The notes: a model not told the origin generated them from the sequence alone. 44,791 nucleotides of DNA from an uncultured Candidatus Saccharibacteria bacterium (GCA_964445405.1 CAYUKX010000002.1:1-44791), one strand, 5' to 3'; positions 5,023-44,053 are shown, counted from the first letter of the stretch. Made by a program: numbers and translations.

Positions 5023-6135
5023 TTACTGACATTGAATTCCGTTAAGAGTAAAGTTGGAACTCAGTAATGGATTATTTGCTCCAGAATAACTCCCTTGGAA
5101 CCCGAAGGCTTGTGTTCCACCATTTGCCAGAATAATCTGGTTGTATACGGCATCATTTGCCGTTACTGCTGTTCCAGTTTGCGACCAAAGTGTATTCCAG
5201 GCATTAGTTATTACTTGGTTCCCAGTAAAATTCCATAATAAACTCCATGTACTAATATTATTTGCAGATATATTTGTAATTACAACATCGGCATTAAACC
5301 CATTCGCCCATTGACTAGTTATTGTGTAGTTAACTTGACAGTAATTTGAGTTTGGAACCCCTGGGTCTTCAATTACACCATCCAATATTGCGTCACAAGG
5401 GGAGCCATTAACTAAAATTATTGAATCCACAGGTGCATAATTATATCCTGTATAACTTGCTTCAAACCCAAACGTCTGAGACCCACCATCGGCAGCAATT
5501 AATGAATTATAGCCAAGATTAGTACCTGTAAATAAATTACCTGATTGTGACCAACCTGTATTCCATGCGTTCAATATTGTTTGATTCCCTGGAAAATTCC
5601 AAGTTATTGTCCAGCCATTAATATCAGTTGGAGTGTTGTTGGTAATAGTTACATCGGCTGTAAAGCCGTTTAAATATGCATTTGTAATTTTATATAACGC
5701 TGAACAATTCCCAGCTGTCATAATCTCAGGAACTTCGTCCCAAAGTGTGACTATCGTGGAGGGATTCACTGTTGAAATATGAGTATGAACTTTTCTAGTA
5801 ACATTTCTAACAGTGGAGGATGTGTTTATTTCCCGGTTAGTATTACCTGTACCAGTTATATTGTAAATAGTGCAGCTTTCTCCGCTAAAAGATAGAGTTT
5901 CGTTTCCTGTATAAGCAGTATTAAGTTTAAGTTTGTTTATGGCAATTTCGGCACAGCTATGTGCAAGGCTTCTGGCCTCTATAGAAGATAGTGAATTAAA
6001 GCTTGTTGTAAATGAATCATTCGAAACTAATATCGTAGAAGTAATAATCATTGCTGTAGCAATCATCAGTATTAAAACACTAGTTATAGTTGTAAAGCCT
6101 TTCTTTAATTTTTTATCTGAGTGTTGCTGTTGCAT
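5023..6135 (-). CDS. PilX/GspK-like minor pilin carrying two C-terminal CBM2 carbohydrate-binding modules
   Basis: The N-terminus KKGFTTITSVLILMIATAMIITS is a pilin-like hydrophobic helix without Glu5. Residues C144-C247 and C266-C369 each fit the CBM family 2 pattern (C..Y.I...W.NGF.ADV.ITN....I..W...WNF.GNQ.I.NAWN..WSQ.G..........YN..I...GG.Q.FGF..SY.G.N........NG..C). It is the last gene of the pilus operon and overlaps the preceding gene by 23 nt. Confidence 0.8.
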   Translation of the reverse strand: MQQQHSDKKLKKGFTTITSVLILMIATAMIITSTILVSNDSFTTSFNSLSSIEARSLAHSCAEIAINKLKLNTAYTGNETLSFSGESCTIYNITGTGNTNREINTSSTVRNVTRKVHTHISTVNPSTIVTLWDEVPEIMTAGNCSALYKITNAYLNGFTADVTITNNTPTDINGWTITWNFPGNQTILNAWNTGWSQSGNLFTGTNLGYNSLIAADGGSQTFGFEASYTGYNYAPVDSIILVNGSPCDAILDGVIEDPGVPNSNYCQVNYTITSQWANGFNADVVITNISANNISTWSLLWNFTGNQVITNAWNTLWSQTGTAVTANDAVYNQIILANGGTQAFGFQGSYSGANNPLLSSNFTLNGIQCQ

Positions 6136-6625
6136 AAAATGTTTGAGAATAATCCAGAGCTGGTTTCCCGGTTGTATTAATGTATGTTACTGTAATTTCT
6201 ATTCTTACTGACCCTACAGCAAAGTTTTCTGTTACATTTCTGAACGTAAGAGACGAAATAGTTACCCTATTAGAATTTAAAGTATTTGCAGGATTACTAC
6301 CTTCGGTAATGGTTATATTGCCTCCACTTAAAGCTATTCCTGTTGGACTGTTAGCCGCGCTAGCCATGACTAGTGATAGAGTACTTCCGCTATTCCCAAT
6401 TGTAGGTGTATTTACTGCACTTGCATTTCTAATGGTTTGAGTTAGTTTAGAAATTATAGATGTGGCTTCTGAACTAACAATCGACATAGCTTCGCCACGG
6501 TCTCGAGTATCGCTTGCTGTAACCCAAAGCATTGCAATCATTAATACTAGTACAGAAGTCAGTGACATATAAAGCAGAACTTCTATTAGTGTAAATGCTT
6601 TTTTTGTATTTATATTAGTTTTCAT
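6113..6625 (-). CDS. Minor (pseudo)pilin, PulJ/PilW-like, prepilin-type N-terminus
   Basis: N-terminus is MKTNINTKKAFTLIEVLLYMSLTSVLVLMIA (class III signal, Glu at +5). It has a 1-nt overlap with the upstream gene. Confidence 0.8.
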   Translation of the reverse strand: MKTNINTKKAFTLIEVLLYMSLTSVLVLMIAMLWVTASDTRDRGEAMSIVSSEATSIISKLTQTIRNASAVNTPTIGNSGSTLSLVMASAANSPTGIALSGGNITITEGSNPANTLNSNRVTISSLTFRNVTENFAVGSVRIEITVTYINTTGKPALDYSQTFYATATLR

Positions 6626-8022
6626 TAGTTTGGTTTGTAAATCATTACTTCTTGAGTATTATTGCTACCAACACCAAATACTCTGTCTAATAGAGGATTA
6701 TAGAAAACATCATTTAGGTTTCCGGTATAGGCCAAACTTCCAAATACTGTCGGGCTTGCAGCGTTCGTTGCATCATAAATTGTAAGTTGGGTAGAAGTAG
6801 CGTCTGCTTGAAAAATATATGGTAAAGAAACATCACCAGTTATTGATAAGCTTGTTGCTCCCACCGCAAATCCGGCACTATTTAATGCAGTTGGTGCAAG
6901 TGGATTAGTTATACTAGCTAAAGATATTGTTGTTCCCCTTTGCAATGCCACACCTAGAGAGTATCTAGCAATGTCCGCGGCATCTGTGTTCCCGGATAAA
7001 TCTAATCCACTTGCAAAAGCAGGTAGGGCGGGGTTAGATATATCGTATATGGTTAACTCAGCATTATTAGCCGAACTTGCAAGATACGCGTAGTTACCTT
7101 CAACCAAGAGTTTAAATATGTTTGCTGCTATTTGTGCGGATCCAAGCAGTGCAGGCGATGCAGGGTTTGTTAAATCGTAAATATATAATTCTGGATCTGT
7201 ACTTGTAGACCTTGTTAAATAGAGCCTATTGTTAAGAACAAAAACACCATTTGCATTGGCTGTTCCTGGCATGTTCACAGTTACAAGTGTTGGCGCAGTT
7301 GGAACAGTCACATCAACAATGTTTAGTTCATTCGTATTACTAGAAGATGCCAAATACACATAATTACCATAAGCTGCAATATCCGCTAAGGTCCCAGTTA
7401 TGCTTATTGTTCCTTGAATAACAGGTGCTGCTAAATTGCTAACATCAACAACAGTAAAATTACTTGCACTACCTGTTCTTGCAACAAATATTTTGTTCCC
7501 GAATTGAAGAACTTCAACAGCATCGGTTGTTCCTGAAAGGTCAATACCACTTTGCAAAGATACACTAGCCCAAGTTTCGTTTGTGGCTGTAGGTCGTTCC
7601 CAACTTGTAAGTTGAACAGTTGCATCTATTGCCCTAGAACTACTACTATTTTGCCAAGATACTGTAACGGTCACTTGTTTTGTATAGGCATCGATTGTCG
7701 ATATTTGTACCGCACGTGTAAAACCATCAACGGAGTCAGATGTTCCTACAAATGCCCAGGAACCAGCAGATAAACCTAAACCATATGTTCCATTAGTTAA
7801 ATTCGAATATGAATTATCTTTTATACTTGTAACTGCTTCTATTCCTTCCTCTAATAGAAAGTTGGCTTTGTTTTCTAAGTTCGCTTGTGATTGTGCAAAA
7901 ATACCATAAGAAAGTGAACCTGCAAGTGTAACAGCAATAATACTTATTAATGCCAATGCTAAAACTACTTCAACAGTAGAAAATCCTCTTAAGTTTTTAG
8001 AATGTAATTTGACCTTTAGCAT
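6625..8022 (-). CDS. Modular minor pilin: prepilin N-terminus fused to an LVIVD-repeat beta-propeller-like domain
   Basis: N-terminus LRGFSTVEVVLALALISIIAV has Gly -1, Phe +1 and Glu +5. The C-terminal ~315 aa contain repeated GNY(V/A)YLASS..NELNIVDV..P.AP / ELYIYDLTNPASP / ELTIYDISNPALP / QLTIYDATNAASP units, typical of LVIVD repeats (PF08309). Confidence 0.8.
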   Translation of the reverse strand: MLKVKLHSKNLRGFSTVEVVLALALISIIAVTLAGSLSYGIFAQSQANLENKANFLLEEGIEAVTSIKDNSYSNLTNGTYGLGLSAGSWAFVGTSDSVDGFTRAVQISTIDAYTKQVTVTVSWQNSSSSRAIDATVQLTSWERPTATNETWASVSLQSGIDLSGTTDAVEVLQFGNKIFVARTGSASNFTVVDVSNLAAPVIQGTISITGTLADIAAYGNYVYLASSSNTNELNIVDVTVPTAPTLVTVNMPGTANANGVFVLNNRLYLTRSTSTDPELYIYDLTNPASPALLGSAQIAANIFKLLVEGNYAYLASSANNAELTIYDISNPALPAFASGLDLSGNTDAADIARYSLGVALQRGTTISLASITNPLAPTALNSAGFAVGATSLSITGDVSLPYIFQADATSTQLTIYDATNAASPTVFGSLAYTGNLNDVFYNPLLDRVFGVGSNNTQEVMIYKPN

Positions 8023-8449
8023 TTACTGTTATTGTTTTTGTAATACCATTATTAGTTATATTTATAGCTCCAGTTGTATTTGGAGTACCGTGTAGTTTAT
8101 TAAAAACAACTTCAGTAACTCCTGTGACTGTAAAACGATTTCCAATACTCCATGCCCTATCAAATGTTGCATTTCGACCCGTAAAGCTACTGCCAGAAAA
8201 TACAATTACTTCATAGTTTGAAAAAGCTACACCCCAACTAGTATCATAAAACCCATCTTCAGAATAACTCTGTGCCATTTTTAAGCTTTTGTAGTAAATG
8301 TTTACTGCATCATCAATCTCACTTCTGTATAGAAAATTCTGGTACAAAGGGACACTCATGACGAATATTATCGCAATCAAAGACATTGACAATAATAATT
8401 CAAATAAGGTGAATGCTTTCTTTTTATTACTCAATCGGTTCATCATCAA
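7997..8449 (-). CDS. Minor pilin, GspH/FimT-like, prepilin-type N-terminus
   Basis: N-terminus is NKKKAFTLFELLLSMSLIAIIFVMSVPLY. It lies between pilC and the other minor pilins. Confidence 0.8.
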   Translation of the reverse strand: MMMNRLSNKKKAFTLFELLLSMSLIAIIFVMSVPLYQNFLYRSEIDDAVNIYYKSLKMAQSYSEDGFYDTSWGVAFSNYEVIVFSGSSFTGRNATFDRAWSIGNRFTVTGVTEVVFNKLHGTPNTTGAINITNNGITKTITVNAKGQITF

Positions 8450-9659
8450 TTATGATTAAATCTTGTTCAACTGTGGATGGAGTATCCTCAATTAAGTCAG
8501 GGTTATTTATAACATTTTCAGTTGGCGGCTGTTCTATAGATGCTGGTTGAATACCATCTGTCGTTAATGATGATATGTTACCTACAATATTATATAAAGG
8601 TAAAATAACTGCTACTGCAACAAATGCAATTCCCGCCCAAATTATAATTATTAGTATTGGTTCAAATATAACACCAGCGTCTTTCAAACTAACTTCATTT
8701 CTTTTTTCAAAGGTTTCACCTATCAATAAAAAGTTTTCTGGTAGTTTTCCAGTTTTTTCACCAACTATAACCATTTCTCTTGCATATAAAGGAAGCATTC
8801 TTCTAACTCGTTTATCGTTATAGAAGATCTCTGAGAATTTATAACCTTTATCTATTAAAATACCCATATCGGTATATAATTTTTTGTAGCTCCTAAAACT
8901 TGTAGCATTCGCAAGTAATAACAAAGACTCTGATGGCGAAATTCCCGTTTCAAACAAATTATTTAATAAATAACCAAATCTAGTAATTTCTGTTTCCATT
9001 AATACATTCTTCAGAATTGGAACTCTAAATAATATTGAATCACCTATATGTTTAGTTTTCTTATTTATGAATAGTGTATAAATTGTGAATAACAACAAGA
9101 ATATAAATAGTGGAACGGCAATAACGCCATACTTGTCAAAGAAATCGCCTACAGCAATCAATATTTTTGTGATGGTAGGTAATTCAACGTTTAAGCTTTT
9201 ATAAATTGTGGTTAATCTTGGTAATACAAAGCCAACCATTACCATAACTACAATTATTAGTAGAGTTAGTACAAAGCTAGGATACAAACTTGCAGATTTT
9301 ATTTTGTTAGAAAACTCATTATCCCTTTGCAGGTATTTAACAACGGTTTTTAAGTTCTTAGGTAGATTGCCGGTCTGTTCACCAATTTGAATTAATGCTA
9401 TTAAGTGATCACCAATATATTTTTCCTCTTTAAATATTTTCCATAATTGCTCTCCGTTTTCGACTCTAAGCCTTAACTTATTAATTAGTTTTTGAACGTT
9501 GGCAGATTTGGTTTCATGTTCAAGAGATTCAAGTATTGTATCTATATCAATACCTGCTGCAAGCATGTTTGCAATGTTTTCGAATAGGTAATTCTTATAC
9601 TTATTTACATTCAGCTCAATTGTAAAAAGCGAGTTTATTTTTTTTATTAATGAGTTCAT
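8427..9659 (-). CDS. pilC: Type IV pilus platform protein PilC (GspF family)
   Basis: It has two GspF-type half-domains, each with the conserved E.TG.LP motif (IGEQTGNLPKNL; VGEKTGKLPENF), and three hydrophobic helices. It shares an ATGA overlap with pilB. Confidence 0.9.
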   Translation of the reverse strand: MNSLIKKINSLFTIELNVNKYKNYLFENIANMLAAGIDIDTILESLEHETKSANVQKLINKLRLRVENGEQLWKIFKEEKYIGDHLIALIQIGEQTGNLPKNLKTVVKYLQRDNEFSNKIKSASLYPSFVLTLLIIVVMVMVGFVLPRLTTIYKSLNVELPTITKILIAVGDFFDKYGVIAVPLFIFLLLFTIYTLFINKKTKHIGDSILFRVPILKNVLMETEITRFGYLLNNLFETGISPSESLLLLANATSFRSYKKLYTDMGILIDKGYKFSEIFYNDKRVRRMLPLYAREMVIVGEKTGKLPENFLLIGETFEKRNEVSLKDAGVIFEPILIIIIWAGIAFVAVAVILPLYNIVGNISSLTTDGIQPASIEQPPTENVINNPDLIEDTPSTVEQDLIIIDDEPIE

Positions 9660-11347
9660 TTCTTATTTAACTTTCGTAAATTTTTATAAATCATCTTTTT
9701 TTCTATTGCTGGTGCAACTCTAAGTACTTCTTCAATTGTAGTTAGTCCCGCTCTAACTTTATCTAATCCGTCTTCAAAAAAAGATATTGCTCCATTTTCT
9801 TTTGCGACATTCCAAATTTCAGAACTTGAGCTTTTTGTTAGTATCAAACTTTGTAATTCGTCATTAATTTCAATTAATTCAAAGATTCCTATTCTTCCTC
9901 TATATCCTGTAAAATTACATTTCTGACACCCTTTACCAGAGTAAAGTCTTATCTTTTCATCTTTAAAATATTCTTTGCTGTACGGCATTAGCTCTTCTAG
10001 GTCATCATGAGTATATTCATGACTTACTTTACATGAATCGCATATTTTTCTAATAAGTCTTTGAGCAACAATTAGGTTTAAAGTTGATGCCAATAAAAAT
10101 GGCTCAATGCCCATATCAACAAGCCTTGGGATTGCGGTTGCCGCATCGTTAGCATGAAAAGTTGATAGTAATAAGTGTCCAGTTAACGCCGCGTTTACAG
10201 CTATTTCTGCTGTTTCTACATCTCGGATTTCTCCAACTAACATTACATTAGGGTCCTGTCTGACAATTGATCTTAGACCTCTTGCAAAAGTAATTTCGTT
10301 TTCTGCATTTACTTGTATCTGATTAATTCCTGGAATTCTAAACTCAACAGGATCTTCGATTGTAGTTATATTTATTTGGGGGTTTAAAAGAATTTTTATT
10401 ATAGAGTAGAGCGTTGTTGTTTTACCAGAACCTGTTGGGCCGGTTGTTAATATCATTCCGAAAGGTTTTTTATAAGCTTTTTCAAGTTTACTAAAGTTTG
10501 CTTCAGAGAACCCTAAATCCTTAATATTTAGGTTCTTTGTATAATTTGTCAGTATTCTAATTACAATTTTTTGTCCATCTAATACAGGAACAATAGATAC
10601 TCTTAAATCTACAGCGAATTTATCGTTTGAAAATCTAATAGCACCGTCCTGAGTTCTGTACCTTTGGTCAATTCTAATATTAGACATTACTTTTATTCTA
10701 TTTAGAATATTTTCGTAAAGCTGCACCGGAACTTCGCCAACTTCTCTAAGTAATCCATCAACTCTTATACGTAGTAATACTGTTTCTGATTGTGGTTCAA
10801 AATGAATATCTGAAGCTTTTAAATCGTATGCTTCACTAAATAATTCATCTAAAAATTTATTAGTAAAATCTGTCCCACTTTCAAAAATGGTATTAATTCT
10901 ATCCTGAAATGGATCTTTGAATCTTAATAAAATTTCATCAATATCTTCGGTTAGTGAGTAGAAAATTTCAACTTTATATTTTGGTATAACCGTTTCTAAT
11001 AGATCTTTTATTTCCTCAATCTGTTCAACTCTATCTGTGGTAACGCTTATTGAATAGTTATCGACTTTAAATGCTAAAACTCGATTTTCGTTAACTATAT
11101 CTTTTGGAATAATATTCAAAGTATCTTCTTTAATTTCACTTTTTTGAAGATTAAAGTAACCAACTTTAAATGTTTCTGCAATTGAATGCCCAATTATTTC
11201 TTTGCTGAAGAACCTTGCTCCAATTAAGTTATCAATGACTGTGCCTCTAGGGTAATCTGCCAGTGCCTTATTAGTATCTTCTTCGGAAATGTAATTATTA
11301 TCAAGTAGGGACTTAAGAATTTCTGTCTCTGATAGCGTACTTCTCAT
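9656..11347 (-). CDS. pilB: Type IV pilus assembly ATPase PilB (GspE family)
   Basis: Walker A is GPTGSGKTTTLYS. Asp/His boxes are VMLVGEIRD and LLLSTFHANDA. The tetracysteine motif is CDSC...CQKC. A GspE_N-like N-terminal domain is present. Confidence 0.93.
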   Translation of the reverse strand: MRSTLSETEILKSLLDNNYISEEDTNKALADYPRGTVIDNLIGARFFSKEIIGHSIAETFKVGYFNLQKSEIKEDTLNIIPKDIVNENRVLAFKVDNYSISVTTDRVEQIEEIKDLLETVIPKYKVEIFYSLTEDIDEILLRFKDPFQDRINTIFESGTDFTNKFLDELFSEAYDLKASDIHFEPQSETVLLRIRVDGLLREVGEVPVQLYENILNRIKVMSNIRIDQRYRTQDGAIRFSNDKFAVDLRVSIVPVLDGQKIVIRILTNYTKNLNIKDLGFSEANFSKLEKAYKKPFGMILTTGPTGSGKTTTLYSIIKILLNPQINITTIEDPVEFRIPGINQIQVNAENEITFARGLRSIVRQDPNVMLVGEIRDVETAEIAVNAALTGHLLLSTFHANDAATAIPRLVDMGIEPFLLASTLNLIVAQRLIRKICDSCKVSHEYTHDDLEELMPYSKEYFKDEKIRLYSGKGCQKCNFTGYRGRIGIFELIEINDELQSLILTKSSSSEIWNVAKENGAISFFEDGLDKVRAGLTTIEEVLRVAPAIEKKMIYKNLRKLNKK

Positions 11348-11871
11348 TTTTTATCAAAGTAATCTTTTAAAAATTCAACAATTTGTGAAAGTTGAAAATT
11401 TGATTTAATCCAGAAATCTATTGCACCTAAATCTTTTGTTTTTTCGATATCCTCTTCTTGGCTTAAATTAGAAAGTACAATTACTTCTGGAGGGTTCTTT
11501 AGTAGTTTTAGCTCTTTTAGGACTTCAAAACCATCTTTATTAGGCATTAAAAGATCTAATAGGATTAAATCATACTTATTCTCTTTAATCATTTTAATAA
11601 CCTCGTTGCCATCTCTAGCAATATCTATCTGAAACCCAGCGGCCCTTAGCTTTATGCTAAAAGCATTCGTAAGGGATTCTTCGTCTTCTGCAACAAGAAT
11701 TCTATAGGATTTCTTTAATGATTCTTCTTTCTTTTCATCATCTTTTATTTCCTTTTTTACTACAGGTTTCTCGTCAACTTCCACTTCCGGTTCGTTTTCA
11801 AGCATCTCTTTTATGCTTTTTCTAGGCTCTTCTTGTTTCTTTTTATTCTTCCCTAAGTCAGTGAATATCAT
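11344..11871 (-). CDS. Stand-alone CheY-like response-regulator receiver with K/E-rich N-terminal extension
   Basis: Sequence RILVAEDEE ... DLILLDLLMPNKDGFEVLKELK ... VIVLSN ... fits a receiver domain. There is no output domain. It is translationally coupled (ATGA) to pilB. Confidence 0.85.
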   Translation of the reverse strand: MIFTDLGKNKKKQEEPRKSIKEMLENEPEVEVDEKPVVKKEIKDDEKKEESLKKSYRILVAEDEESLTNAFSIKLRAAGFQIDIARDGNEVIKMIKENKYDLILLDLLMPNKDGFEVLKELKLLKNPPEVIVLSNLSQEEDIEKTKDLGAIDFWIKSNFQLSQIVEFLKDYFDKK

Positions 11872-11887
11872 CTTATTTATGTTGAAA

Positions 11888-11909
11888 GTCCTTTACGAAT
11901 GTAAAGGAC
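11888..11909 (-). terminator. Hairpin between major pilin genes and pilus assembly genes (likely partial terminator/attenuator)
   Basis: GTCCTTTAC-gaat-GTAAAGGAC forms a 9-bp perfect stem. It starts 24 nt after the pilin stop and is followed on the minus strand by TTTC. Confidence 0.6.
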
Positions 11910-11932
11910 AAACGTTCATTTATTATTTAAAA

Positions 11933-12388
11933 CTATCTACTAACACTTATTGTTGCTGACTCTGCGTTTGGTGCAGCTACTGTAACTCTGTTAGATGCCG
12001 CTAAACAAATAGTATATCCAGTGTTTGCAGCAGTCCCACCGGTTGGGTCTTTAGGTATTCCTACTACATAGGTTGGTACAAGCAGTGTTGATAAATCAAT
12101 ATAGTCAGGATCCACTGTCGTTCCAATAATTAGTACATCAGTTGTGCAGTTAGGAATTGTTCCAAAATCACCAATAAGGTTCCCTGATTGTGATGTATAT
12201 TGAGTAACCGCATTTAGAATTTGGGTTACATCAGATCTTCTTTGTGTATTTCTAGCATCCTGAAAATTCTTTGCAGGGTTAATTGCAATAATGGTAATGG
12301 CAGCTAAAAATCCAATTAAAGCAATTACTACAAGAACTTCGATTAATGTGAATGCTTTTTTTGTTTTGTTTGGTTTGTATTCCTTCAT
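11933..12388 (-). CDS. Type IV major pilin, paralog 2
   Basis: N-terminus is KTKKAFTLIEVLVVIALIGFLAAITIIAINP. It is 59 aa identical to the neighbouring paralog and shares the C-terminal ESATISVSR. Confidence 0.9.
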   Translation of the reverse strand: MKEYKPNKTKKAFTLIEVLVVIALIGFLAAITIIAINPAKNFQDARNTQRRSDVTQILNAVTQYTSQSGNLIGDFGTIPNCTTDVLIIGTTVDPDYIDLSTLLVPTYVVGIPKDPTGGTAANTGYTICLAASNRVTVAAPNAESATISVSR

Positions 12389-12406
12389 AATATATTAATA
12401 AATTAA

Positions 12407-12847
12407 TTATCTACTTACTGAAATTGTCGCACTTTCTCCACCAGGAGCCGATACAGTTACTCTTCCTCCAGTAGTTAAACATATATCGTAACCAGTATCT
12501 GTTACAGTACTTATACTTGGATCGTTAGGTATTGCAACAACATATGTTGGTACAAGGTTTGTTCCTAGATTCACCATACCGACTGCAGTTCCAATGTTTG
12601 TAGTCGTAGGGCAAGTTGCAATGGTTCCTAATCCCGATAGGGTGTTGCCTTGTTGAGTTGTATATTGAGTAACCGCATTTAGAATTTGGGTAACATCAGA
12701 TCTTCTTTGAGTATTTCTAGCATCCTGAAAGTTCTTCGCAGGGTTAATAGCAATAATAGTAATAGCAGCTAAAAATCCAATTAAAGCGATTACTACCAGA
12801 ACTTCGATCAGTGTAAATGCTTTTTTCGTTTTATTTCTGTTGTTCAC
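12407..12847 (-). CDS. Type IV major pilin, paralog 1 (GTG start)
   Basis: It has the same prepilin N-terminus and is the first gene of the pilus operon. The start codon at 12845-12847 reads GTG on the minus strand. Confidence 0.9.
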   Translation of the reverse strand: MNNRNKTKKAFTLIEVLVVIALIGFLAAITIIAINPAKNFQDARNTQRRSDVTQILNAVTQYTTQQGNTLSGLGTIATCPTTTNIGTAVGMVNLGTNLVPTYVVAIPNDPSISTVTDTGYDICLTTGGRVTVSAPGGESATISVSR

Positions 12848-18384: not shown

Positions 18385-18396
18385 TATTTAAGGTTT

Positions 18397-18413
18397 GGGG
18401 GCATTCTGCCCCC
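18397..18413. terminator. GC-rich hairpin between convergent rubrerythrin and island-1 ORF
   Basis: GGGGGCA-ttc-TGCCCCC lies 13 nt after the rubrerythrin stop and 6 nt before the minus-strand ORF stop. Confidence 0.65.
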
Positions 18414-18418
18414 ACCTA

Positions 18419-18685
18419 CTAATCTCGAGCGTCCCATTTTTGCCGTGCCCGCTCATTGGCTTTACGGACTGCGTTGTCCGCAATCATGAGGGGGCGGATC
18501 ATCAGCCACAATGCTGCGGCCCACCCATCAAACACTAAAAGGGTCAACTCGACACTTCCCCCTACAAAATTGTTTACAATCACGTAGGGGCCCATTGTAA
18601 GTAGCATTAGTTGTGGCAGGCTCGCGTAGAACCAACCTAGCACCACAGCTAATACGATCAAGAGCTTTACAGTTCTGCCAAGCAT
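18419..18685 (-). CDS. Small (88 aa) two-helix membrane protein encoded in G+C-rich island 1
   Basis: AGGAG sits 5 nt upstream of the ATG. Hydrophobic segments are KLLIVLAVVLGWFYASLPQLMLL and VELTLLVFDGWAAALWLMIRPLMI, with a charged tail. Codon usage (GCG, CGC, CTG, CCC) is unlike the neighbours. Confidence 0.55.
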   Translation of the reverse strand: MLGRTVKLLIVLAVVLGWFYASLPQLMLLTMGPYVIVNNFVGGSVELTLLVFDGWAAALWLMIRPLMIADNAVRKANERARQKWDARD

Positions 18686-18713
18686 TTTAGCTCCTAGACC
18701 TTTGCTTGCTTGA

Positions 18714-18722
18714 ATTATAACA
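18714..18722 (-). promoter_or_regulatory. Extended -10 promoter element for island-1 ORF
   Basis: The minus strand reads TGTTATAAT (TGnTATAAT), ~29 nt upstream of the ATG. There is no good -35. Confidence 0.4.
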
Positions 18723-18816
18723 TCTCTTATTCGATTGGCAGATATAGCTATTCTTTATTGACTTGAATAAGAATTAGTTTTAAACTCAGAATAACTTAAA
18801 TTATTAACTATAAAAC

Positions 18817-19382: not shown

Positions 19383-21383
19383 ATGAAAGCTACCTTTCTT
19401 TTTGTCTTTATTGTTTTATTGTTTGGCTACAGTTCAAAAATACAAGCTGATACTAATTTAATAGTAAATGAGATTCTTCCTGATGCCACAGGTGCAGATT
19501 CGGGCAAGGAATATGTAGAACTGTATAATATTAGTGATACTGACATTAATCTAAATAATGCATATCTCATAAATACATCCCAGTCAGGTACATCTAAAAA
19601 AATACTATTACCATCAAGTAAAATATCCGCAAAATCTTATTTCGTTTTTTCTGAGGATCTAAGCTTATTACAAATTAGTAATGGGTTATCACTTGGTAGT
19701 GGAAAAATAGCTTTATACAACGACTTTGCAAAACTTGAACTTTATAATGAAAATGTAATTCTACATGCAGTTAATTACGGAGATTCTAAAGAGGGTATTT
19801 CGTGGGAACTTGATGGCCCAGTCTGTAATAATTTACAATATTCGCAACAAAACAGCGCTGGAGTTTTTAATTCGGTAGGTGCTCAAAATTGCTTTGAAGT
19901 TGTCGAATCTGTTGTTTCTTATCCTGAAGTAAGTATTGCACAACCACTCATAAAATTTTCTTTAGATGGAGTAGTCTGGAGTGATACTATTTCCACATTT
20001 ATTAATAGGGATGTTTATTTTAAATATATAACAGATACAAATTCAGTGCCAAATTCAGTTATATGGTCAGATGCTTATGGAAACGTTATTACATCCCCTT
20101 ATAAATTTAGTTCCGTTTATAACAAAGGGCTAAGTGTAGAAATTGACTACAATAGTCAGTCTGTACAAGCCAAGAGTTTTGATATAAATATTGAAAATAA
20201 TATTTCTAATAAAGTTTTAATAACTGAAGCTTATCCTAGTCCTGATACCGGAGATAGTGAATGGATAGAATTGTACAATAATGATGTTATGACAGTTGAT
20301 TTAGCAAACTATATTCTTGAAGAAAAAAGTTCTAGTGGAGTTACAAATAGACGAATACCAATTGGAAGTTTTTTGCTGGCACCGAAGTCCTATTATGTAA
20401 TTTATGAAGAGGATTTTAATATTAGCCTAAACAATTCAGGAGATGAAATTTACTTAATTGATATTAATAATAATCAAATTGATAAATTCATTTACAAGCA
20501 AGTTCCTAATTCACAATCAGTAGGGCGGAAACTTAACGAAGAGTCTTTCAGTAATGAAACATTTGAATCATTCAGTCCTACACCAAATAAGCCAAATGTA
20601 TTTGGTGAATCTTCAAAACCTGTTTTGACGTATCAATCCCTAGGCAACATTAGCTCGCTTGAAGTAGGGAGTGAGTTCTTATTTAATGTAAATATTGTTA
20701 GCTTTATTGATAGGTATATTTTTATTCAAGATAGTAGTGCAACAATTAAGGCTAAACTTACTGTTCCACTTGAGAGTGATCTTATAAACACATACGTACA
20801 GTTAACTGCAAAAGTAATTAACTTAAACGGTTCAATCAACTTAGAAATTAACCCAGAGAATATTAAGGTGCTTGATTACCTTAACCTTACTCCGTCAATT
20901 ATTTCTGAATTATTACCAACTACTGATTCAATTGGAAGATTAGTGAGTTTTACAGGTGTTATAGACCAAGTATACGACAATCGTGTTAAGGTAAAACTAC
21001 AAGACCAATTGTTTAATGTTTACTTTAATACTCCTGTAAATACTCTTATCATTAAAAAAGGTTCTACAATAAATGTTACAGGCGTTATTGATTACTACAG
21101 AGCATCATACAGAATCATTGCAAATGAATACACTATTCCTGAAGTATTATCAGAATCAATTAGTGTAAGTTATCCAGTATCGTATTTAACTAAAGCAAGC
21201 TCATTAATACCGCAAAGTTACCCTGAAGATAATTCTCGTATTTATTTAGTAGCCTTTGGATATGTTGCACTGCTCTTTATTTTTGTTATTGAAATAGTAA
21301 ATAATAGAAAGTATTTAATTAAAAGATTCAACAAGATAAAAAGTAAAATAAAAATATTTAACAGACCCATGATAAAATATTAG
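19383..21383 (+). CDS. Secreted protein with two lamin-tail domains (LTD), OB-fold-like C-terminal repeats and a C-terminal anchor
   Basis: Signal peptide is MKATFLFVFIVLLFGYSSKIQA. LTD signatures are LIVNEILPDATGADSGKEYVELYNISDTDINL and VLITEAYPSPDTGDSEWIELYNNDVMTVDL. The C-terminus reads IPQSYPEDN + TM + K/R tail. Confidence 0.75.
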   Translation: MKATFLFVFIVLLFGYSSKIQADTNLIVNEILPDATGADSGKEYVELYNISDTDINLNNAYLINTSQSGTSKKILLPSSKISAKSYFVFSEDLSLLQISNGLSLGSGKIALYNDFAKLELYNENVILHAVNYGDSKEGISWELDGPVCNNLQYSQQNSAGVFNSVGAQNCFEVVESVVSYPEVSIAQPLIKFSLDGVVWSDTISTFINRDVYFKYITDTNSVPNSVIWSDAYGNVITSPYKFSSVYNKGLSVEIDYNSQSVQAKSFDINIENNISNKVLITEAYPSPDTGDSEWIELYNNDVMTVDLANYILEEKSSSGVTNRRIPIGSFLLAPKSYYVIYEEDFNISLNNSGDEIYLIDINNNQIDKFIYKQVPNSQSVGRKLNEESFSNETFESFSPTPNKPNVFGESSKPVLTYQSLGNISSLEVGSEFLFNVNIVSFIDRYIFIQDSSATIKAKLTVPLESDLINTYVQLTAKVINLNGSINLEINPENIKVLDYLNLTPSIISELLPTTDSIGRLVSFTGVIDQVYDNRVKVKLQDQLFNVYFNTPVNTLIIKKGSTINVTGVIDYYRASYRIIANEYTIPEVLSESISVSYPVSYLTKASSLIPQSYPEDNSRIYLVAFGYVALLFIFVIEIVNNRKYLIKRFNKIKSKIKIFNRPMIKY

Positions 21384-21862: not shown

Positions 21863-21886
21863 AAAGCCCTCCTTTCGGAGGGCTTT
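21863..21886. terminator. Bidirectional intrinsic terminator
   Basis: AAAGCCCTCC-tttc-GGAGGGCTTT is flanked by an A-run and a T-run. It lies between convergent genes. Confidence 0.8.
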
Positions 21887-21890
21887 AAAT

Positions 21891-24221
21891 TTATTTCTCA
21901 GCTTTTTCCTTTAACTTTTTCTCAGCTTTGTTTTCGTAGCTTGAAGTAAAGTTACTATACATATTAGTTAGGAAATTAGTTTTGCTACCTAATCCAAATT
22001 TCATTGAAAGGTAACCCCCTAATATAAACAATGTTCCTATTATTAGTAATCTTGCGTCATCTTCTAATGCTGTTTGTGGAATTACTGGAATTACACTACA
22101 ACCATTTGTACATGTTGATGCTGTACATCCATTCAAAATACACTTGTTTGCTGAACAACTATGATTATTAGGACATTCACTGTTTGTAGTACATGGTCCT
22201 CCACATAATGGAACACAACCGTTTGTACATGTAGAACCTGTACATCCATTTAGTACACACTTGTTACTTACACAACTATGGTTGTTAGGACACTGTGAAT
22301 TTGTTGTACAACTTGATCCGCAAACTGGAACTGTTGGTGTACATGTATTGTCTGAACAATTACCTGGTGTTAAGCAAGTATTCAATTTACACACATTTGC
22401 ATCACAAGTATGACCTTGTGGACATAAGTTATTAGTTGAATTACATGATGCTCCACAGGCAACTTCTACAGGACAAGCTCCACCAGATGCTGCAGCTTCG
22501 CAGTTAGAATTTGACGTCCAACCACTTGGGCAAGATGTTCCATTAAACTGTTGATTTTCACAAGCATTTGCATCTGTAGTGCCAACTGTACATCTGTAAC
22601 ACTGTATTGTTGGTTCAGTACAAGTTAATGTGTTTACAGTTAACGTATTAGTATATAAATTTGGTATTCCTAAGAATGCAACTCTAACGTAATAAGTTTT
22701 TGCAGGATCAATTGTATAAGGTGAACCGTTCATTGTAAATCCAGTAGGTGCTACAGTTTGGTTAGTTCCTAGTGCAATGAATTTTGTACCTCTGCTAGCT
22801 ACTGCAAAGTCATTTCTGTCACTTATATCAACTGCATAAGCATGTCCTGATGCATTATTTGCGTTTCCAGTTACAGTATTCCAGTTGATAGTTATTTGAT
22901 TACTATTTGCTACACATGCTGCAGCTCCACTTACTGTTGGGGTTTCAACTGGACAAACTCCACCTGTTGCAGCCGTTTCGCAACTTGAGTTATTAGTCCA
23001 ACCTGTTGGGCAAGATGTACCATCAAATTGTTGATTTTCACAAGCATTGCCATCTAGTGTTCCAGTAGTACATCTATAACAAGTTATCTTTGGTATTTCT
23101 ACTGCACAGGCACCACCAGTTGCAGCAGTTGAACATACAGAGTTTGTAGTCCAACCAGTTGGGCAAGACGTACCACTTACAGTTTGGCTAGTACATGTAT
23201 TACCATCGTTTGTTACATCAGTACATTTATAACAAGTTGTTTGTACAGTTAAATTACATAATTGTTGAAGTTGTGCTGGTGTAGGATTTTGACCATTTAG
23301 TAAAACATAACTATTGTATTGATCTCTATCAACGCACTTAGCAGTTGTTAATTGTGCAGCTCCTGCACCTGTAATTGGTGCACAGTATGTTGTATCACTT
23401 ACATTTGGTCTTGAGTTTGTACATGCTGGACCAACAATATATCTACATTCAGATTTACCATCAGCACATAAGCCTACACTTGCATTACATGTTTGACCGC
23501 AAGTTCTACCTGCTGAACAGTCGCAATTTGCACCAAAAATAGTTTTTCCAACAGGACAAAATACATTTGCACATTTCTTAACTCCACCACCTTCATCTCT
23601 ACAAACTACTGTTCCTCCGTTTGCAGCACCTTTACAATCAGCATCGCTATTACATGTTTCCCCGCATACTCTTTGAGTTGGTGCACATTGATTATTACAG
23701 TTTGAGCTTGTATAAGTTCCATTTGTATCATCTCTTACACAAGAATTACTACTACATTTATATTTAGGTGTTGCTTGGTTACAATCCCCAGTATAGTAAA
23801 CAATATAGTCTATTAGTCCACTATTATAGTCATTGCTATTGAATACGTCTATTTGAACAGTAACTCCACACTCACCTGTAGGAACGGATTCAGAAGTTGT
23901 GAATCCATTGTTTTCCCAGAATGGTGTAGCACCACCGCCTCCGCACTCATCATGTCTTCCAGTACACTTAAACATTTTTACAGAAGCTACACTATTACTA
24001 CAAGATGTTCCTGTACATTTACGAGCAGGACAAGTAGACCCACCACCCGAACAACCAATTCCTGTACCACAGCAGTTAGTAAATGCTGATCCAGTAAATG
24101 CACCTGTTTCTGTAGGCGCTTGGCTTTCTTGAAGCTTTACAGTTACGTAAATACTTACACCCGCAAGTATTACCGTAAGGAAAATTAATATTGCTAGGGT
24201 GATCTTTTTTCGGTTTGACAT
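21891..24221 (-). CDS. Large cysteine-rich modular surface protein (N-terminal signal-anchor, three 6-Cys modules, FN3-like insert, knottin-like C-terminal repeats, C-terminal anchor)
   Basis: N-terminal helix is ITLAILIFLTVILAGVSIYV. Three ~48-aa modules read TCY(K/R)CT....D.N.C..Q...GTSCP(T/S)GWT.NS.C..AA.GG.CPVE. The repeats CG.(S/P)CTTNS(Q/E)CPNNHSC..NKC(V/I)LNGCT.STCTNGC follow. The C-terminus is IPQTALEDD + TM. Confidence 0.85.
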   Translation of the reverse strand: MSNRKKITLAILIFLTVILAGVSIYVTVKLQESQAPTETGAFTGSAFTNCCGTGIGCSGGGSTCPARKCTGTSCSNSVASVKMFKCTGRHDECGGGGATPFWENNGFTTSESVPTGECGVTVQIDVFNSNDYNSGLIDYIVYYTGDCNQATPKYKCSSNSCVRDDTNGTYTSSNCNNQCAPTQRVCGETCNSDADCKGAANGGTVVCRDEGGGVKKCANVFCPVGKTIFGANCDCSAGRTCGQTCNASVGLCADGKSECRYIVGPACTNSRPNVSDTTYCAPITGAGAAQLTTAKCVDRDQYNSYVLLNGQNPTPAQLQQLCNLTVQTTCYKCTDVTNDGNTCTSQTVSGTSCPTGWTTNSVCSTAATGGACAVEIPKITCYRCTTGTLDGNACENQQFDGTSCPTGWTNNSSCETAATGGVCPVETPTVSGAAACVANSNQITINWNTVTGNANNASGHAYAVDISDRNDFAVASRGTKFIALGTNQTVAPTGFTMNGSPYTIDPAKTYYVRVAFLGIPNLYTNTLTVNTLTCTEPTIQCYRCTVGTTDANACENQQFNGTSCPSGWTSNSNCEAAASGGACPVEVACGASCNSTNNLCPQGHTCDANVCKLNTCLTPGNCSDNTCTPTVPVCGSSCTTNSQCPNNHSCVSNKCVLNGCTGSTCTNGCVPLCGGPCTTNSECPNNHSCSANKCILNGCTASTCTNGCSVIPVIPQTALEDDARLLIIGTLFILGGYLSMKFGLGSKTNFLTNMYSNFTSSYENKAEKKLKEKAEK
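22092..22322 (-). repeat. Two tandem ~38-aa eight-cysteine (knottin/EGF-like) units
   Basis: The units are CGSSCTTNSQCPNNHSCVSNKCVLNGCTGSTCTNGC and CGGPCTTNSECPNNHSCSANKCILNGCTASTCTNGC. Confidence 0.85.
22461..22604 (-). repeat. Third copy of the six-cysteine module, after the FN3-like insert
   Basis: Residues 540-587 read QCYRCTVGTTDANACENQQFNGTSCPSGWTSNSNCEAAASGGACPVE. Confidence 0.85.
22938..23237 (-). repeat. Two tandem ~50-aa six-cysteine modules (coding repeat)
   Basis: Residues 329-378 and 380-428 of the 776-aa protein align position for position. Confidence 0.85.
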
Positions 24222-24290
24222 ATATTAGTCCACTGTAAAGTAATTTATAGTTAGTATTTCAAAATTTGATGTACATGTCAATTTTATAGG

Positions 24291-25457
24291 TTAGTTTTTT
24301 CGTCGGTATTTAGTTCCTATTAAATTTGCGACTATATCTTCTCCTATTTGAAATCTAAAAGTGATTATTGCAATTAAAATAAATATAAATCCTATAAATA
24401 CCAACCCTATACCATCGCCTAACGCTGTGTTTGGTAGAGCGTTGTTATTAGTAGAATTTGCTGTATTTGATGTTGGTATTGCACAAGAGTGTTTTGATAA
24501 TAATGCAAATGTGTTGGTGTTGCCTGTGGTGTTGCTTGTATTATAAGTTACAGTTGTACTAGAATTTGTTCCATTCTGAAATGTAGATAATTTTTCTTTA
24601 GGAATTTTAAGTTCATAAGTAACTGTTTTAGTTTGATTCGCAGTATAAGTTCTAGCAGCCGAACTTTCTGCCCACGTAATTTTATTACCAGCAGTAGTAC
24701 CAGTGTTGCTTACATTTAAAGGGGTAATTCCATTCGTAACTAATGTATTGTCAAATGTTTCTTCAACTTTTGTTATAGTTCCACTAACGGTGCTTATATT
24801 TGTAATACTAATTGTATACTTTATTAATGCATCACCTGAAGTTTCGCATGTGGCTGCGTAAGAGTTAGTAATTCTAAATTGTGGCTCAGCTAGCTGAGTT
24901 GTACCATTATTCGTATTATTATTTGTCCCAGTATTATTACCGGTATTCGAGTTTGTGTTTCCAGTCTGTGGAAATGAAGCAGGGAATGAGGCAGGAAAAG
25001 ATACTGGCGCAGTTGTTCCTGTGCAAGCAGTATTAAATTTTTTTATTGTAGTTCCGCATGCTCCTAGGGAATTTACACCAGATGTTTCAAGCTCTAAATA
25101 CATTTGAACCGTACCGCAAGTGACACCACCTAAATAGCTATTAAGGTTAACTGATCCACCTGAAGCAACTGGACTAATTGGAATTTCGATTGGATTACTT
25201 GAAATACATTTTTCATTGTCACGCTTTAATTCATTACAAAAGTGAATGTAAACTTTTGATGGATTACATACCCCTGACGGTATTGTACATGTGTTAGTAG
25301 TATTATTGCAGTTTGCAAGTATTGGATTTGTTTGTGCTCCTGTTTGACTTTGTAGGTTATTGTTATTAATCACTGAGCTGATTAATATACTTACCCCAGC
25401 CAATACTACAGTGGCAATAATAAGAATTGCGATTAGCAGTTTTCTATTCTTAGTCAT
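24291..25457 (-). CDS. Surface protein paralogous at both termini to the 776-aa protein; N/T-rich linker and DUF11-like domain
   Basis: I prefer the start at Met15 of the tracked ORF because MTKNRKLLIAILIIATVVLAGVSI parallels MSNRKKITLAILIFLTVILAGVSI next door. A DUF11-like pattern is present (GDALIKYTISITN.S..SGTITKVEETFD...KITW). The C-terminus is LPNTALGDG + TM + basic tail. Confidence 0.75.
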   Translation of the reverse strand: MTKNRKLLIAILIIATVVLAGVSILISSVINNNNLQSQTGAQTNPILANCNNTTNTCTIPSGVCNPSKVYIHFCNELKRDNEKCISSNPIEIPISPVASGGSVNLNSYLGGVTCGTVQMYLELETSGVNSLGACGTTIKKFNTACTGTTAPVSFPASFPASFPQTGNTNSNTGNNTGTNNNTNNGTTQLAEPQFRITNSYAATCETSGDALIKYTISITNISTVSGTITKVEETFDNTLVTNGITPLNVSNTGTTAGNKITWAESSAARTYTANQTKTVTYELKIPKEKLSTFQNGTNSSTTVTYNTSNTTGNTNTFALLSKHSCAIPTSNTANSTNNNALPNTALGDGIGLVFIGFIFILIAIITFRFQIGEDIVANLIGTKYRRKN

Positions 25458-25619
25458 TATTTTATGTTTAAACTCAACATAGTATTGCAGAAATTGCATT
25501 GAGTGTCAAAGCTCATTAAATACTGCTACAAAGGATTACACAGCCTATTTCAAATCAAAATTTGTAAATTGGGCTAAAACCGTATTTATTGTTAAAATTA
25601 CTTAATTTAAGTAATCAAA

Positions 25620-36232: not shown

Positions 36233-36332
36233 AAAACTGTGTTTAAAAATGACTTGGAATTTTACCACAAAAAGCAAGTAATTTCTAATGTAGATAATTA
36301 AATTAGGTGATTAGTCAGTTGAACACTACGTG

Positions 36333-36361: not shown

Positions 36362-36387
36362 CCAGTGTGCATATACGGAGGTGTTGG

Positions 36388-43600: not shown

Positions 43601-44053
43601 ATGTTACCTAAAAAGAAAAGAAAGTTTGCCCTCAAAAGTTTTGCCATTGTAAGTGCTATTAGTTTATTTGTTGTTGCAGTATCTTTAGCTACTGGCATAT
43701 TAAGAATAGATATTGTTGCTTCTTCTGTATCAAAAGAAATTCCTGCTAATTATCAAAAACTTGAAGGTAATATTATGGATAAAATCCAAAACGGAAAAAA
43801 CTTTATATTCTTTACATCGAGCTGGTGTGGCCCTTGTCAAACAATGTCTAATATCTATAAATTATCTGCAGAAAAATATTCTGATATAAATTTTTACGAA
43901 GCAGACATAGAGGTAAATAGAGAATTAGCAAATAGTGTATCTGCTGCAAATGCTCCTGTAGTTTTGTTTATGCAAGATGGTAAAGTAATTGGCAATACCG
44001 AAGTAAACTTAAACGAAATTGAAAAGACAGTAGATAAATACGCATCACTTTAG
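43601..44053 (+). CDS. Membrane-anchored thioredoxin-like protein
   Basis: An N-terminal TM is followed by the WCGPCQ active site. Confidence 0.85.
   Translation: MLPKKKRKFALKSFAIVSAISLFVVAVSLATGILRIDIVASSVSKEIPANYQKLEGNIMDKIQNGKNFIFFTSSWCGPCQTMSNIYKLSAEKYSDINFYEADIEVNRELANSVSAANAPVVLFMQDGKVIGNTEVNLNEIEKTVDKYASL

Follow-up and report, generated by a model that had tools for sequence, protein, structure and literature searches.

A cysteine-rich modular surface protein of Patescibacteria, built on a rare six-cysteine module, is a candidate adhesin-like fibre

A 44,791-nt stretch of DNA from an uncultured Candidatus Saccharibacteria bacterium (GCA_964445405.1 CAYUKX010000002.1:1-44791; hereafter the window) encodes, at 21891..24221 on the minus strand, a 776-residue cysteine-rich modular surface protein. 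On balance, though with modest confidence, we read this protein as an adhesin-like fibre, stapled by disulfides and anchored in the envelope, of a cell of Candidatus Dojkabacteria, ultra-small bacteria within the candidate phyla radiation (CPR, or Patescibacteria). Its architecture lies far beyond chance: orthologs as distant as 53% identity show it too, and every cysteine is kept where the domain is present. The six-Cys module that it carries in three copies is rare and is without a described family or solved fold counterpart.

The coding region coincides exactly with that proposed by a first-pass annotation made from the sequence, a complete open reading frame (ORF) with an ATG start. Cysteine makes up 74 of the 776 residues (9.54%) in a composition led by Thr, Gly, Cys, Asn and Ser, against a mean of 0.52% in the other 40 window ORFs, many of which have none at all. 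Promoter-like sites were called on consensus match alone; the one at 24253..24281 on the minus strand (TTGACA, 17 nt, TG, AATACT) matches 10 of 12 consensus positions, has an extended -10 element and ends ~30 nt upstream of the ATG. An intrinsic-terminator-like hairpin detected by a terminator scan (21863..21886, minus strand; 10-bp stem with six G-C pairs, then a T run) lies 5 nt past the stop codon, and is bidirectional and common to the convergent YgjP gene. These flanking signals, a ratio of nonsynonymous to synonymous substitution rates (dN/dS) of 0.095 and orthologs on many contigs argue for a functional gene.

Domain boundaries were drawn from hidden Markov model (HMM) searches, alignments and AlphaFold2 (AF2) models. 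The parts listed in the first-pass annotation were recovered: the signal-anchor, Cys/Gly-rich head, CG..C units and C-terminal anchor helix by sequence, HMM and AF2, the three six-Cys modules at the positions proposed for them (module HMM domain E 1e-23 to 1e-26) and the three C-terminal Cys-rich units by HMM, and the FN3-like insert by its fold. The picture of a modular, extracytoplasmic, Cys-rich protein of Patescibacteria is thereby supported, although that list had overlooked an LPxT[AG]-type sorting motif, a conserved partner gene and a 16-Cys middle domain. The region between the anchors is a string of small domains, comprising a 10-Cys head, the 16-Cys domain, three six-Cys modules, one FN3 domain and three 8-Cys units. 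Because a Sec-type signal-anchor stands at the N terminus and a motif, transmembrane helix and basic tail stand at the C terminus, ~680 residues are predicted to lie outside the membrane.

The protein opens with a signal-anchor or signal peptide (aa 1-40, 24102..24221; this and all further domains of the protein are on the minus strand), in which MSNRKK is followed by a hydrophobic helix of 21-23 residues and then by a LQESQAPTETGA motif; AF2 places the helix at aa 3-33, and ortholog column identity is 0.92. The head (aa 41-147, 23781..24101) is beta-rich, contains 10 Cys and ends CG.TVQIDVF...D.IVYYTGDC, with an AF2 block at a predicted local distance difference test (pLDDT) score of 77-88 across about aa 70-140. 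A 4-Cys linker segment of low pLDDT (aa 148-184, 23670..23780), missing from the relative P0006, leads to the 16-Cys middle domain (aa 185-326, 23244..23669), which opens with a CG..C.....C unit. Neither the head profile, made from 9 homologs, nor the 16-Cys domain matched any PDB sequence at E<=10. Iterative HMM searching collected 20 distinct copies of the 16-Cys domain, which were aligned (A6); the domain also occurs in otherwise unrelated architectures (P0012-16, P0018, P0063 and others), and hhalign shows a likeness between its opening ~30 residues and the 8-Cys unit (E=4e-4, probability 34%).

Copy 1 of the six-Cys module follows (aa 329-378, 23088..23237; TCYKCT...GTSCPTGWTTNS.C..AATGGAC; HMM domain E=2.7e-23), then copy 2 (aa 380-428, 22938..23084; E=7.8e-26), an FN3-fold insert (aa 431-535, 22617..22931) with one Cys near each end (C436 and C534), and copy 3 (aa 540-587, 22461..22604; E=1.1e-25), the reference copy of DNA repeat D1. 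Three 8-Cys units identified by HMM (aa 588-630, 633-670 and 672-710, 22092..22460; CG..C.....CP..H.C....C.LN.C....C...C) lead into the C-terminal sorting/anchor region (aa 711-776, 21894..22091), in which IPQTA, the acidic linker LEDDAR and a transmembrane helix precede a Lys-rich tail ending SYENKAEKKLKEKAEK. The insert was modelled by AF2 at a block pLDDT of 83-90, with one block at 64, and its top Foldseek matches are FN3 domains of BOC, CDO, neogenin and DCC (probability 1.00; template modelling score against the target, TMt, 0.52-0.67). As the Pfam fn3 HMM is unmatched, we assign it to FN3 at the level of the predicted fold only. It is also the most variable domain, with an ortholog column identity of 0.63. 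Searches of the full protein and ten relatives against Pfam and NCBIfam gave nothing above cut-off, and Pfam at E<=1 gave no EGF, GCC2_GCC3 or DUF4215 in the full protein. The Foldseek result for the full-length model is dominated by FN3 and is thus uninformative on the head and middle domains.

The six-Cys module spans 48 aa, which fall at aa 329-376 (23094..23237) in copy 1 and at aa 380-427 (22941..23084) in copy 2, and has the spacing C-x2-C-x9-C-x9-C-x9-C-x8-C and the pattern C-Y-R-C-T...D-G-N-x-C...C-P-x-G-W-x-x-N-S-x-C...G-G-x-C. At the DNA level the copies form a three-copy direct repeat of 151 nt with 66-76% identity (family D1). Asp12 is invariant and Tyr4 and Asn14 are nearly so; Trp30 and the 'NS' before C5 are the consensus of the main subtype, and a large subtype (CP.G[ST]S) has S, T or M in place of Trp30. 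The AF2 model of copy 2 (mean pLDDT 83.7) consists of a beta-hairpin (residues 2-6 and 16-20) and a short helix. Each of 43 distinct copies was searched against Pfam at E<=10, with no match to EGF, GCC2_GCC3, DUF4215, TSP1, Kunitz or pacifastin; the sole recurring match was a partial one to NPCBM_assoc, in 7 copies. Against all PDB sequences, the module profile found just a 13-15-residue 'SQT..CP.GW' motif of collagen IV NC1, with no stretch individually significant, and we rejected this short likeness as homology. Foldseek searches of the model returned a best E of 4 against PDB and 0.66 against BFVD, and no probability above 0.25. The first-pass annotation had been unable to place the module and had named EGF, GCC2_GCC3 and DUF4215 as examples of known families that would tell against this; the module indeed stays unplaced, with none of the 43 copies matching these three at E<=10.

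The geometrically best Foldseek match of the module model is BPTI (3fp7_J; TMq 0.49, TMt 0.54, probability 0.10, E=8.1), and it raises the question of whether the protein is a polyprotein precursor or multi-headed inhibitor, whose pacifastin-, Kunitz-, antistasin-, WAP- or cyclotide-like knots would act against foreign proteases or be released as peptides. Single weak matches of individual copies to Antistasin, WAP, Cyclotide, Haemadin and cyclotide vhl-1 point in the same direction, as do the pacifastin-like six-Cys domains, recognized from structure only, that have been described in CPR including WS6 (PMC13388995, 2026). All such matches lie below significance, however, and we consider this reading highly improbable. 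BPTI/Kunitz was rejected for the module, which has no Pfam Kunitz match; Kunitz domains space their cysteines about C-x8-C-x15-C-x7-C-x12-C-x3-C, which differs from the six-Cys spacing. Pacifastin was rejected as well: Cys spacing and connectivity differ (1-4, 2-6, 3-5 with a C-x2-C-x-C core, against the 1-4, 2-3, 5-6 that we propose below), there is no Pacifastin_I match, and no pacifastin chain is among the Foldseek PDB matches. The one WS6 protein with a stated length (PMC13388995) is a single-domain protein of 103 aa. There are also no dibasic or Asn/Asp processing sites between the modules, which stand between two membrane anchors.

The 8-Cys units are unrelated to the six-Cys modules by hhalign (probability 10%). 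They form the most conserved region of the protein (ortholog column identity 0.86-0.90), and units 2 and 3 constitute a 117-nt tandem DNA repeat of 74% identity. The first ~20 residues of the unit (C-x5-C-P-x-[GN]-H-x-C-x4-C) draw recurrent Pfam matches, all of them below cut-off: EB in 15 of 26 copies, DUF7107 in 11, Dumpy_DPY in 9 and Dickkopf_N in 7. Dumpy_DPY reaches at most 21.9 bits (E=1.7e-4) against a gathering threshold of 27; for EB, the window copy scores 16.8 bits (E=0.0074) against 24.3, and the best E across copies is 0.0038. The 8-Cys profile also found the Dumpy peptide 1oig in PDB (E=0.0072), and the match to the Dumpy DPY motif was rejected as homology. The PDB sequence searches covered the full protein and four domain profiles, and gave only this motif and that of collagen IV NC1. 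Among EGF, GCC2_GCC3 and DUF4215 types, the 26 copies gave one match only at E<=10, to EGF_Tenascin (E=0.99). The earlier description of these units as knottin/EGF-like therefore holds as a resemblance but not as family membership, since EB, DUF7107, Dumpy_DPY and Dickkopf_N all fall short of their Pfam cut-offs. Weak precomputed DUF4215 matches were seen only in genes neighbouring relatives.

We then considered how the cysteines might pair. Counts by domain are all even (10, 4, 16, 6, 6, 2, 6, 8, 8 and 8 from the N terminus), and the eight full-length orthologs keep every Cys of the domains that they possess. Where cysteines do change, they change together: in the head, C50 and C57 are lost jointly in the same four of eight orthologs, and an extra 'NC...W.C' pair is gained jointly in three of nine aligned sequences. 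A degenerate six-Cys copy kept in both P0036 and P0037 (45% identical) is without exactly C1 and C4, and one copy in P0036 is without exactly C5 and C6. From this paired loss we infer the pairing C1-C4, C2-C3, C5-C6, which fits the AF2 hairpin, where C2 (residue 6) and C3 (residue 16) are opposed at the loop end. Together with the low dN/dS, even counts and paired change indicate a functional and probably fully disulfide-bonded extracellular protein.

A different use of the same residues would be as thiolate ligands for Zn, Fe or Cu, or as a sacrificial thiol sink, making the protein metal-binding or redox-buffering instead of disulfide-bonded. Each six-Cys module does contain a CxxC, a few copies have very weak zinc-finger matches (zf-primase, E=0.47; zf-CCCH, E=0.038-0.45), and the window encodes a membrane thioredoxin and a rubrerythrin. 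A metal-cluster role is nonetheless unlikely, because each module has a single CxxC and lacks both a second knuckle and His ligands, because the site is extracytoplasmic, and because cysteines are lost in pairs and not in fours. The remaining Cys are evenly spaced singletons typical of disulfide ladders, and the FN3 domain has a two-Cys clamp, one near each end. We give the metal or redox reading very little weight.

The protein family is narrowly distributed. A word-indexed search of 5.8 billion proteins returned 22 relatives only, and an exhaustive six-Cys HMM search of 1.84 billion representatives at 50% identity returned 59 proteins at E<=1e-3. Two of these, P0072 and P0078, were spurious partial matches to eukaryote-type tandem repeats and were removed, leaving 57 true carriers. 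Those with a readable source organism are Patescibacteria, mainly Dojkabacteria. A cluster member is named by NCBI 'hypothetical protein [Candidatus Dojkabacteria bacterium]', and genome matches to the module (scan with alignment A3) fall in Dojkabacteria metagenome-assembled genomes (MAGs), an unclassified Patescibacteria genome and one Saccharibacteria-labelled MAG. Orthologs of the Cys-rich protein share 53-82% identity with it and lie on many independent contigs.

Carriers contain between 1 and 13 six-Cys copies, the maximum being in P0036 (1977 aa), and fall into three classes that all bear extracellular signatures. The first has the window-like frame, with an N-terminal transmembrane helix and QAP motif and a C-terminal [LIV]PxT[AGS], acidic linker, transmembrane helix and basic tail often ending [FY]E.[KR]. 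The second consists of small proteins ending in dockerin-like D.NGDGKID repeats, and the third of very long proteins whose C termini form a conserved domain of their own, with the ending ...Y.KYSIRE. The carrier P0021 combines the module with a DUF11/DUF7927 beta-sandwich. About ten carriers (P0040, P0043, P0044, P0046, P0059, P0063, P0064, P0070, P0073 and P0079) end in paired 'D.NGDGKID..D...F' repeats with no LPxTA anchor, which hints at cohesin-dockerin-type assembly in these Patescibacteria. Seven proteins of 930-1980 aa (P0012, P0013, P0015, P0016, P0036, P0037 and P0048) contain either the 16-Cys domain or as many as 13 six-Cys modules, have no membrane anchor, and share an unannotated C-terminal domain that ends approximately '...P.H.F..D.RY..I......Y.KYS.RE...'.

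Domains are also exchanged at a single locus. In P0008/L007, a beta-sandwich replaces the 16-Cys domain (aa 185-326), and an 8-Cys unit plus a CGDAVC unit, similar to the Myxococcus repeat ('CGDAVCNVGELCE'), replaces FN3 (aa 431-535). Such swaps amount to cassette-like diversification of a surface protein. We computed dN/dS against L004, the closest ortholog compared (82% amino-acid identity, dS about 1.1), and discarded the values against L001 and L007, which suffer from saturation at synonymous sites and from swaps of non-homologous domains. Beside the whole-gene value given above, the ratio is 0.017 for the signal-anchor, 0.035 for the six-Cys modules, 0.065 for the 16-Cys domain, 0.108 for the 8-Cys units, 0.149 for the head and 0.30 for FN3. 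The gene is therefore under strong purifying selection, with FN3 and the head least constrained and the six-Cys modules lowest among the extracellular domains.

Two further readings turn on this pattern of constraint and distribution. One refines the adhesin model: the six-Cys modules, and perhaps the 8-Cys units, would be carbohydrate-binding in the manner of hevein (carbohydrate-binding module family 18, CBM18), CBM14 or scytovirin, and would tether the cell to polysaccharide, for example a host wall or a polymer of plant or microbial origin, rather than to a protein receptor. The low dN/dS of the six-Cys modules, the conserved Tyr4, Asp12 and Asn14, and Trp30 with 'NS' in the main subtype would suit such a role, as would the dockerin-like ends of some carriers and a two-CBM_2 protein in the pilus cluster of the window; the scytovirin match of the 8-Cys profile is very weak and not significant (E=9.6). 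We treat this as a tentative possibility, as neither sequence nor fold matches any CBM or lectin family, replacement of Trp30 by S, T or M in the large subtype implies that the aromatic is not universally needed, and the conserved D-G-N may be a mere hairpin turn. The other reading is passive: an S-layer-like or wall scaffold, or a spacer, that has no specific ligand and uses its modules for rigidity and protease resistance. A membrane helix at both ends, the high conservation of the 8-Cys repeats, purifying selection throughout and the housekeeping genomic context are all consistent with it. A core envelope part would be expected to be widespread, however, and the spread here is very restricted and patchy, at 57 clusters in 1.84 billion representatives; domain swaps, changes of copy number between close lineages and a variable head and FN3 are moreover typical of interaction surfaces. 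We accordingly regard the passive reading as doubtful.

The C-terminal signal begins with IPQTA at aa 714-718 (nt 22068-22082) and continues through a 6-residue acidic linker and a transmembrane helix at about aa 723-744 to a Lys-rich tail of 32 residues, a layout shared by most module carriers; sequence and AF2 model together put the C-terminal helix at aa 723-742. For three of ten relatives, the tail passes the LPXTG_anchor model TIGR01167 (16.9-17.9 bits against a cut-off of 15.9). The NCBIfam LPxTATN signal NF058670 (cut-off 32 bits) reaches 13.9 at best in relatives' tails and does not match the window tails. A sortase has been reported for over half of the CPR genomes, though outside Microgenomates its detection is patchy (PMC6744442, Méheust et al.). 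From these sequence features, sortase anchoring of the Cys-rich protein is plausible.

Both ends of the frame bear further motifs. At the extreme C terminus of most carriers, 20-45 residues past the transmembrane helix, a Lys-rich helix contains [FY]-E-x-[KR]; the window version is SYENKAEKK (aa 763-776, nt 21894-21935), others read FEKK, FEKR or YEHR, and no NCBIfam sorting-signal model matches this tail motif. Directly after the N-terminal transmembrane helix stands 'Q-A-P-[DE/T]-[DT]-[SG]-[SA]-A' (window aa 30-41, nt 24099-24134), which otherwise differing proteins share (P0001-P0011, P0019, P0021, P0047, P0050, P0054, P0062, P0065, P0067, P0068, P0076 and others). The motif could mark a site of processing or recognition; with Pro at +1, signal peptidase I would be unable to cleave directly after QA. 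Two tandem, overlapping signal peptidase I (Peptidase_S26) genes lie at 38644-39923 on the plus strand of the window.

Directly upstream of the Cys-rich gene, and on the same strand, lies a gene for a partner surface protein of 388 aa with 10 Cys (24291..25457), which has a signal-anchor and a C terminus of LPNTA, a transmembrane helix and RRKN. In Bacillus anthracis, LPNTA serves as the motif of class D sortase. By BLASTP, homology between partner and Cys-rich protein is limited to the N-terminal signal-anchor and the C-terminal signal, at 41% identity each. A promoter-like site (25481..25509, minus strand; TTGACA, 17 nt, TG, AATACT) has the same hexamers as that of the Cys-rich gene. Because this site falls inside the mechanically longest ORF, the true start of the partner is probably the ATG at 25457 and not that at 25499. 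The two-gene cassette recurs in L001, L002, L004, L005 and L007, and in L001 and L002 the YgjP and lamin-tail-domain (LTD) neighbours are present as well.

The LTD protein of the window (666 aa; 19383..21383, plus strand) has two stretches matched by Pfam LTD (E=7.9e-26), a signal peptide and a C-terminal transmembrane helix. An 'IPQSYPEDN' before that helix resembles the IPQTALEDD of the Cys-rich protein. In Roizmanbacteria, too, a secreted cysteine-rich protein adjoins a lamin-tail-domain protein (PMC6509639), and the Cys-rich/LTD neighbourhood may be conserved across CPR phyla.

The first-pass annotation regarded densely disulfide-bonded extracellular proteins as unusual for bacteria and as implying a special oxidative-folding capacity, which does not hold for CPR: Cys-rich extracellular proteins and MdbA-like/VKOR systems are already documented there (PMC4736985, PMC6509639, PMC6744442). 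Membrane-bound MdbA-like oxidoreductases, often beside VKOR, are over-represented in CPR genomes, as are sortases (PMC6744442), so oxidative-folding capacity is expected for the lineage. It is not attributable to the membrane-anchored thioredoxin gene at 43601..44053, to which the annotation had pointed. That gene is real, with a WCGPC site and a match to Pfam Thioredoxin (PF00085 only, E=3e-12); its product has a Lys-rich N terminus, one transmembrane helix and a classical thioredoxin domain of ~105 aa, which would face outward by the positive-inside rule. Its link to the Cys-rich gene, 19 kb away among unrelated genes, is conjecture. A DsbA/MdbA-type oxidase, which would have a helical domain inserted into the thioredoxin fold and a CPHC-like site, was rejected for it on the grounds of the short domain, the classical WCGPC and the lack of a VKOR/DsbB neighbour; the membrane protein of 214 aa encoded next to it contains a single Cys and is unmatched in Pfam. 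Extracytoplasmic WCGPC thioredoxins are usually reductants or isomerases.

We propose the following model of the adhesin-like fibre. With all 74 Cys in intradomain disulfides, the extracytoplasmic region would form a semi-rigid rod resistant to proteases and shear. The 8-Cys repeats beside the anchor would serve as a membrane-proximal stalk spanning the wall, the six-Cys modules and FN3 would occupy the middle of the fibre, and the variable head would be distal. Head and FN3, possibly with the constrained six-Cys modules, would offer the distal surface that binds a host-cell or polymer ligand. The C-terminal transmembrane helix may be retained as the anchor, or a sortase may cut IPQT|A and transfer the protein to the wall; folding would presumably fall to an MdbA/VKOR-type system known from CPR and encoded elsewhere in the genome. 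The Cys-rich protein may act jointly with its co-encoded LPNTA-anchored partner, and shuffling of module number and domain content between lineages could generate surface diversity.

Several observations weigh against this model. Its adhesin function is drawn from architecture and lineage biology alone, and the rod-like shape is assumed and does not come from a structural model: the full-length AF2 model, with a mean pLDDT of 64 and a predicted TM score of 0.26, is of low quality except in the head, in FN3 and in part of the middle domain. The disulfide pairing derives from few degenerate copies in two related proteins. The strong constraint on the six-Cys modules fits binding, and fits a pure structural need equally well. 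On the side of anchoring, neither window tail (Cys-rich protein or partner) matches TIGR01167, and no sortase turned up in Pfam searches of essentially all window ORFs >=100 aa, in the window and 9 loci scanned for TLxTC, or in 20-kb regions around P0006, P0010, P0014 and P0021. The long tail with its conserved [FY]E.[KR] is atypical of classical sortase signals, and leaves room for simple transmembrane anchoring or a lineage-specific pathway. Finally, neither the 44.8-kb window nor the 20-kb surroundings of four relatives yielded DsbA/MdbA, DsbB or VKOR.

More speculatively, the six-Cys module may represent a new disulfide-rich fold that occurs only in Patescibacteria, serving Dojkabacteria as a ligand-recognition unit for host or substrate, and the recurrent frame (N-terminal transmembrane helix and 'QAP[DE][DT]S[SA]A'; C-terminal LPxT[AG], acidic linker, transmembrane helix and cytoplasmic [FY]E.[KR]) may define a CPR-specific display and sorting pathway distinct from classical sortase; we put this forward as an unlikely but conceivable extension. 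All cultivated CPR/Patescibacteria are episymbionts (PMC11623550), and surface proteins of this type are obvious candidates for the recognition of hosts and attachment to them. The three or four alignable families (six-Cys, 8-Cys, 16-Cys and head), with the cassette and the frame, can supply HMMs to catalogue CPR surface proteins. The six-Cys module, small, confidently predicted and apparently a fold orphan, is an easy target for nuclear magnetic resonance or crystallography and for binding screens.

The remainder of the window (~31% G+C) encodes housekeeping functions (PheT, RecO, BipA, Ham1 and an FKBP-type isomerase), two-component systems, ABC transporters and rubrerythrin. A type IV pilus cluster (5023..12847, minus strand) contains a PilB-like ATPase, PilC, four pilin-like N_methyl proteins and a response regulator; such a cluster is usual for CPR bacteria. 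Two further products of the cluster, one carrying a pair of cellulose-binding CBM_2 domains (5023-6135) and the other an LVIVD beta-propeller protein (6625-8022), occupy positions that suggest pilus-associated substrate or host binding. Two gaps, 18385-18816 and 36278-36873, are GC-rich (0.41-0.42 against ~0.31), look non-coding and fold far better than shuffled controls (z = -3.50 on the plus strand and -4.10 on the minus strand). Neither gap holds a tRNA or tmRNA, and Rfam gave nothing credible for either at E<=1; they may be unannotated structured RNAs, and the mechanical ORF at 36367-36807 (plus strand) in the second gap is probably not a gene.

The closest known counterparts are the large Cys-rich extracellular proteins of CPR, reported from Peregrinibacteria and proposed to function in attachment (PMC4736985, Anantharaman et al. 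2016). The protein described here shares with that class (PMC4736985, PMC6509639) the CPR lineage, a signal peptide, predicted extracellular location, the lack of functional annotation, strain-level variation, a nearby LTD protein (here 19383-21383) and high cysteine content (reported as 7.2 +/- 2.4%, against 9.5% here). The reported proteins are larger, averaging about 1655 aa, and are defined by composition and weak similarity to the Myxococcus Cys-rich repeat, with no module, sorting signal or partner gene reported; the class is one of description and is not defined by homology, and our protein fits it in its CPR origin, secretion signal, Cys content several-fold above the proteome and lack of known domains.

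In overall design the protein also resembles the sortase-anchored (LPXTG) MSCRAMM-type adhesins of Gram-positive bacteria, among them the class D LPNTA substrates of Bacillus, with a secretion signal, repeated small extracellular domains and a C-terminal [LI]PxT[AG], hydrophobic helix and basic tail; three relatives' tails pass TIGR01167, and the partner carries LPNTA. It differs in relying on disulfides where those adhesins use isopeptide bonds or Ig-like packing, and in having an acidic linker after the motif and a long cytoplasmic tail with [FY]E.[KR]. Animal extracellular modules (Dumpy DPY PF21164, EB PF01683, Dickkopf_N and EGF-like) share with the first half of the 8-Cys unit the beta-hairpin motif C-x5-C-P-x-(G/N)-x-x-C-x4-C and likewise form tandem arrays in extracellular fibres. 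The 8-Cys unit has four further Cys in another pattern, however, and the six-Cys module bears no resemblance to them; since the phyletic distributions are disjoint, convergence is the likely explanation.

The pacifastin-like domains of CPR/WS6 (PMC13388995) and Kunitz/BPTI domains resemble the modules in having six Cys in about 35-58 aa, an N-terminal beta-hairpin and multidomain extracellular settings. The pacifastin-like arrangement, C1-x(9-12 or longer)-C2-x2-C3-x-C4...C5-x4-C6 with C1-C4, C2-C6 and C3-C5 bonds (PMC13388995), fits neither the six-Cys nor the 8-Cys module in topology or spacing. That CPR bacteria make disulfide-rich secreted proteins and can fold them was already known; new here are the defined building blocks, above all the rare six-Cys module, together with the conserved cassette and the display frame.

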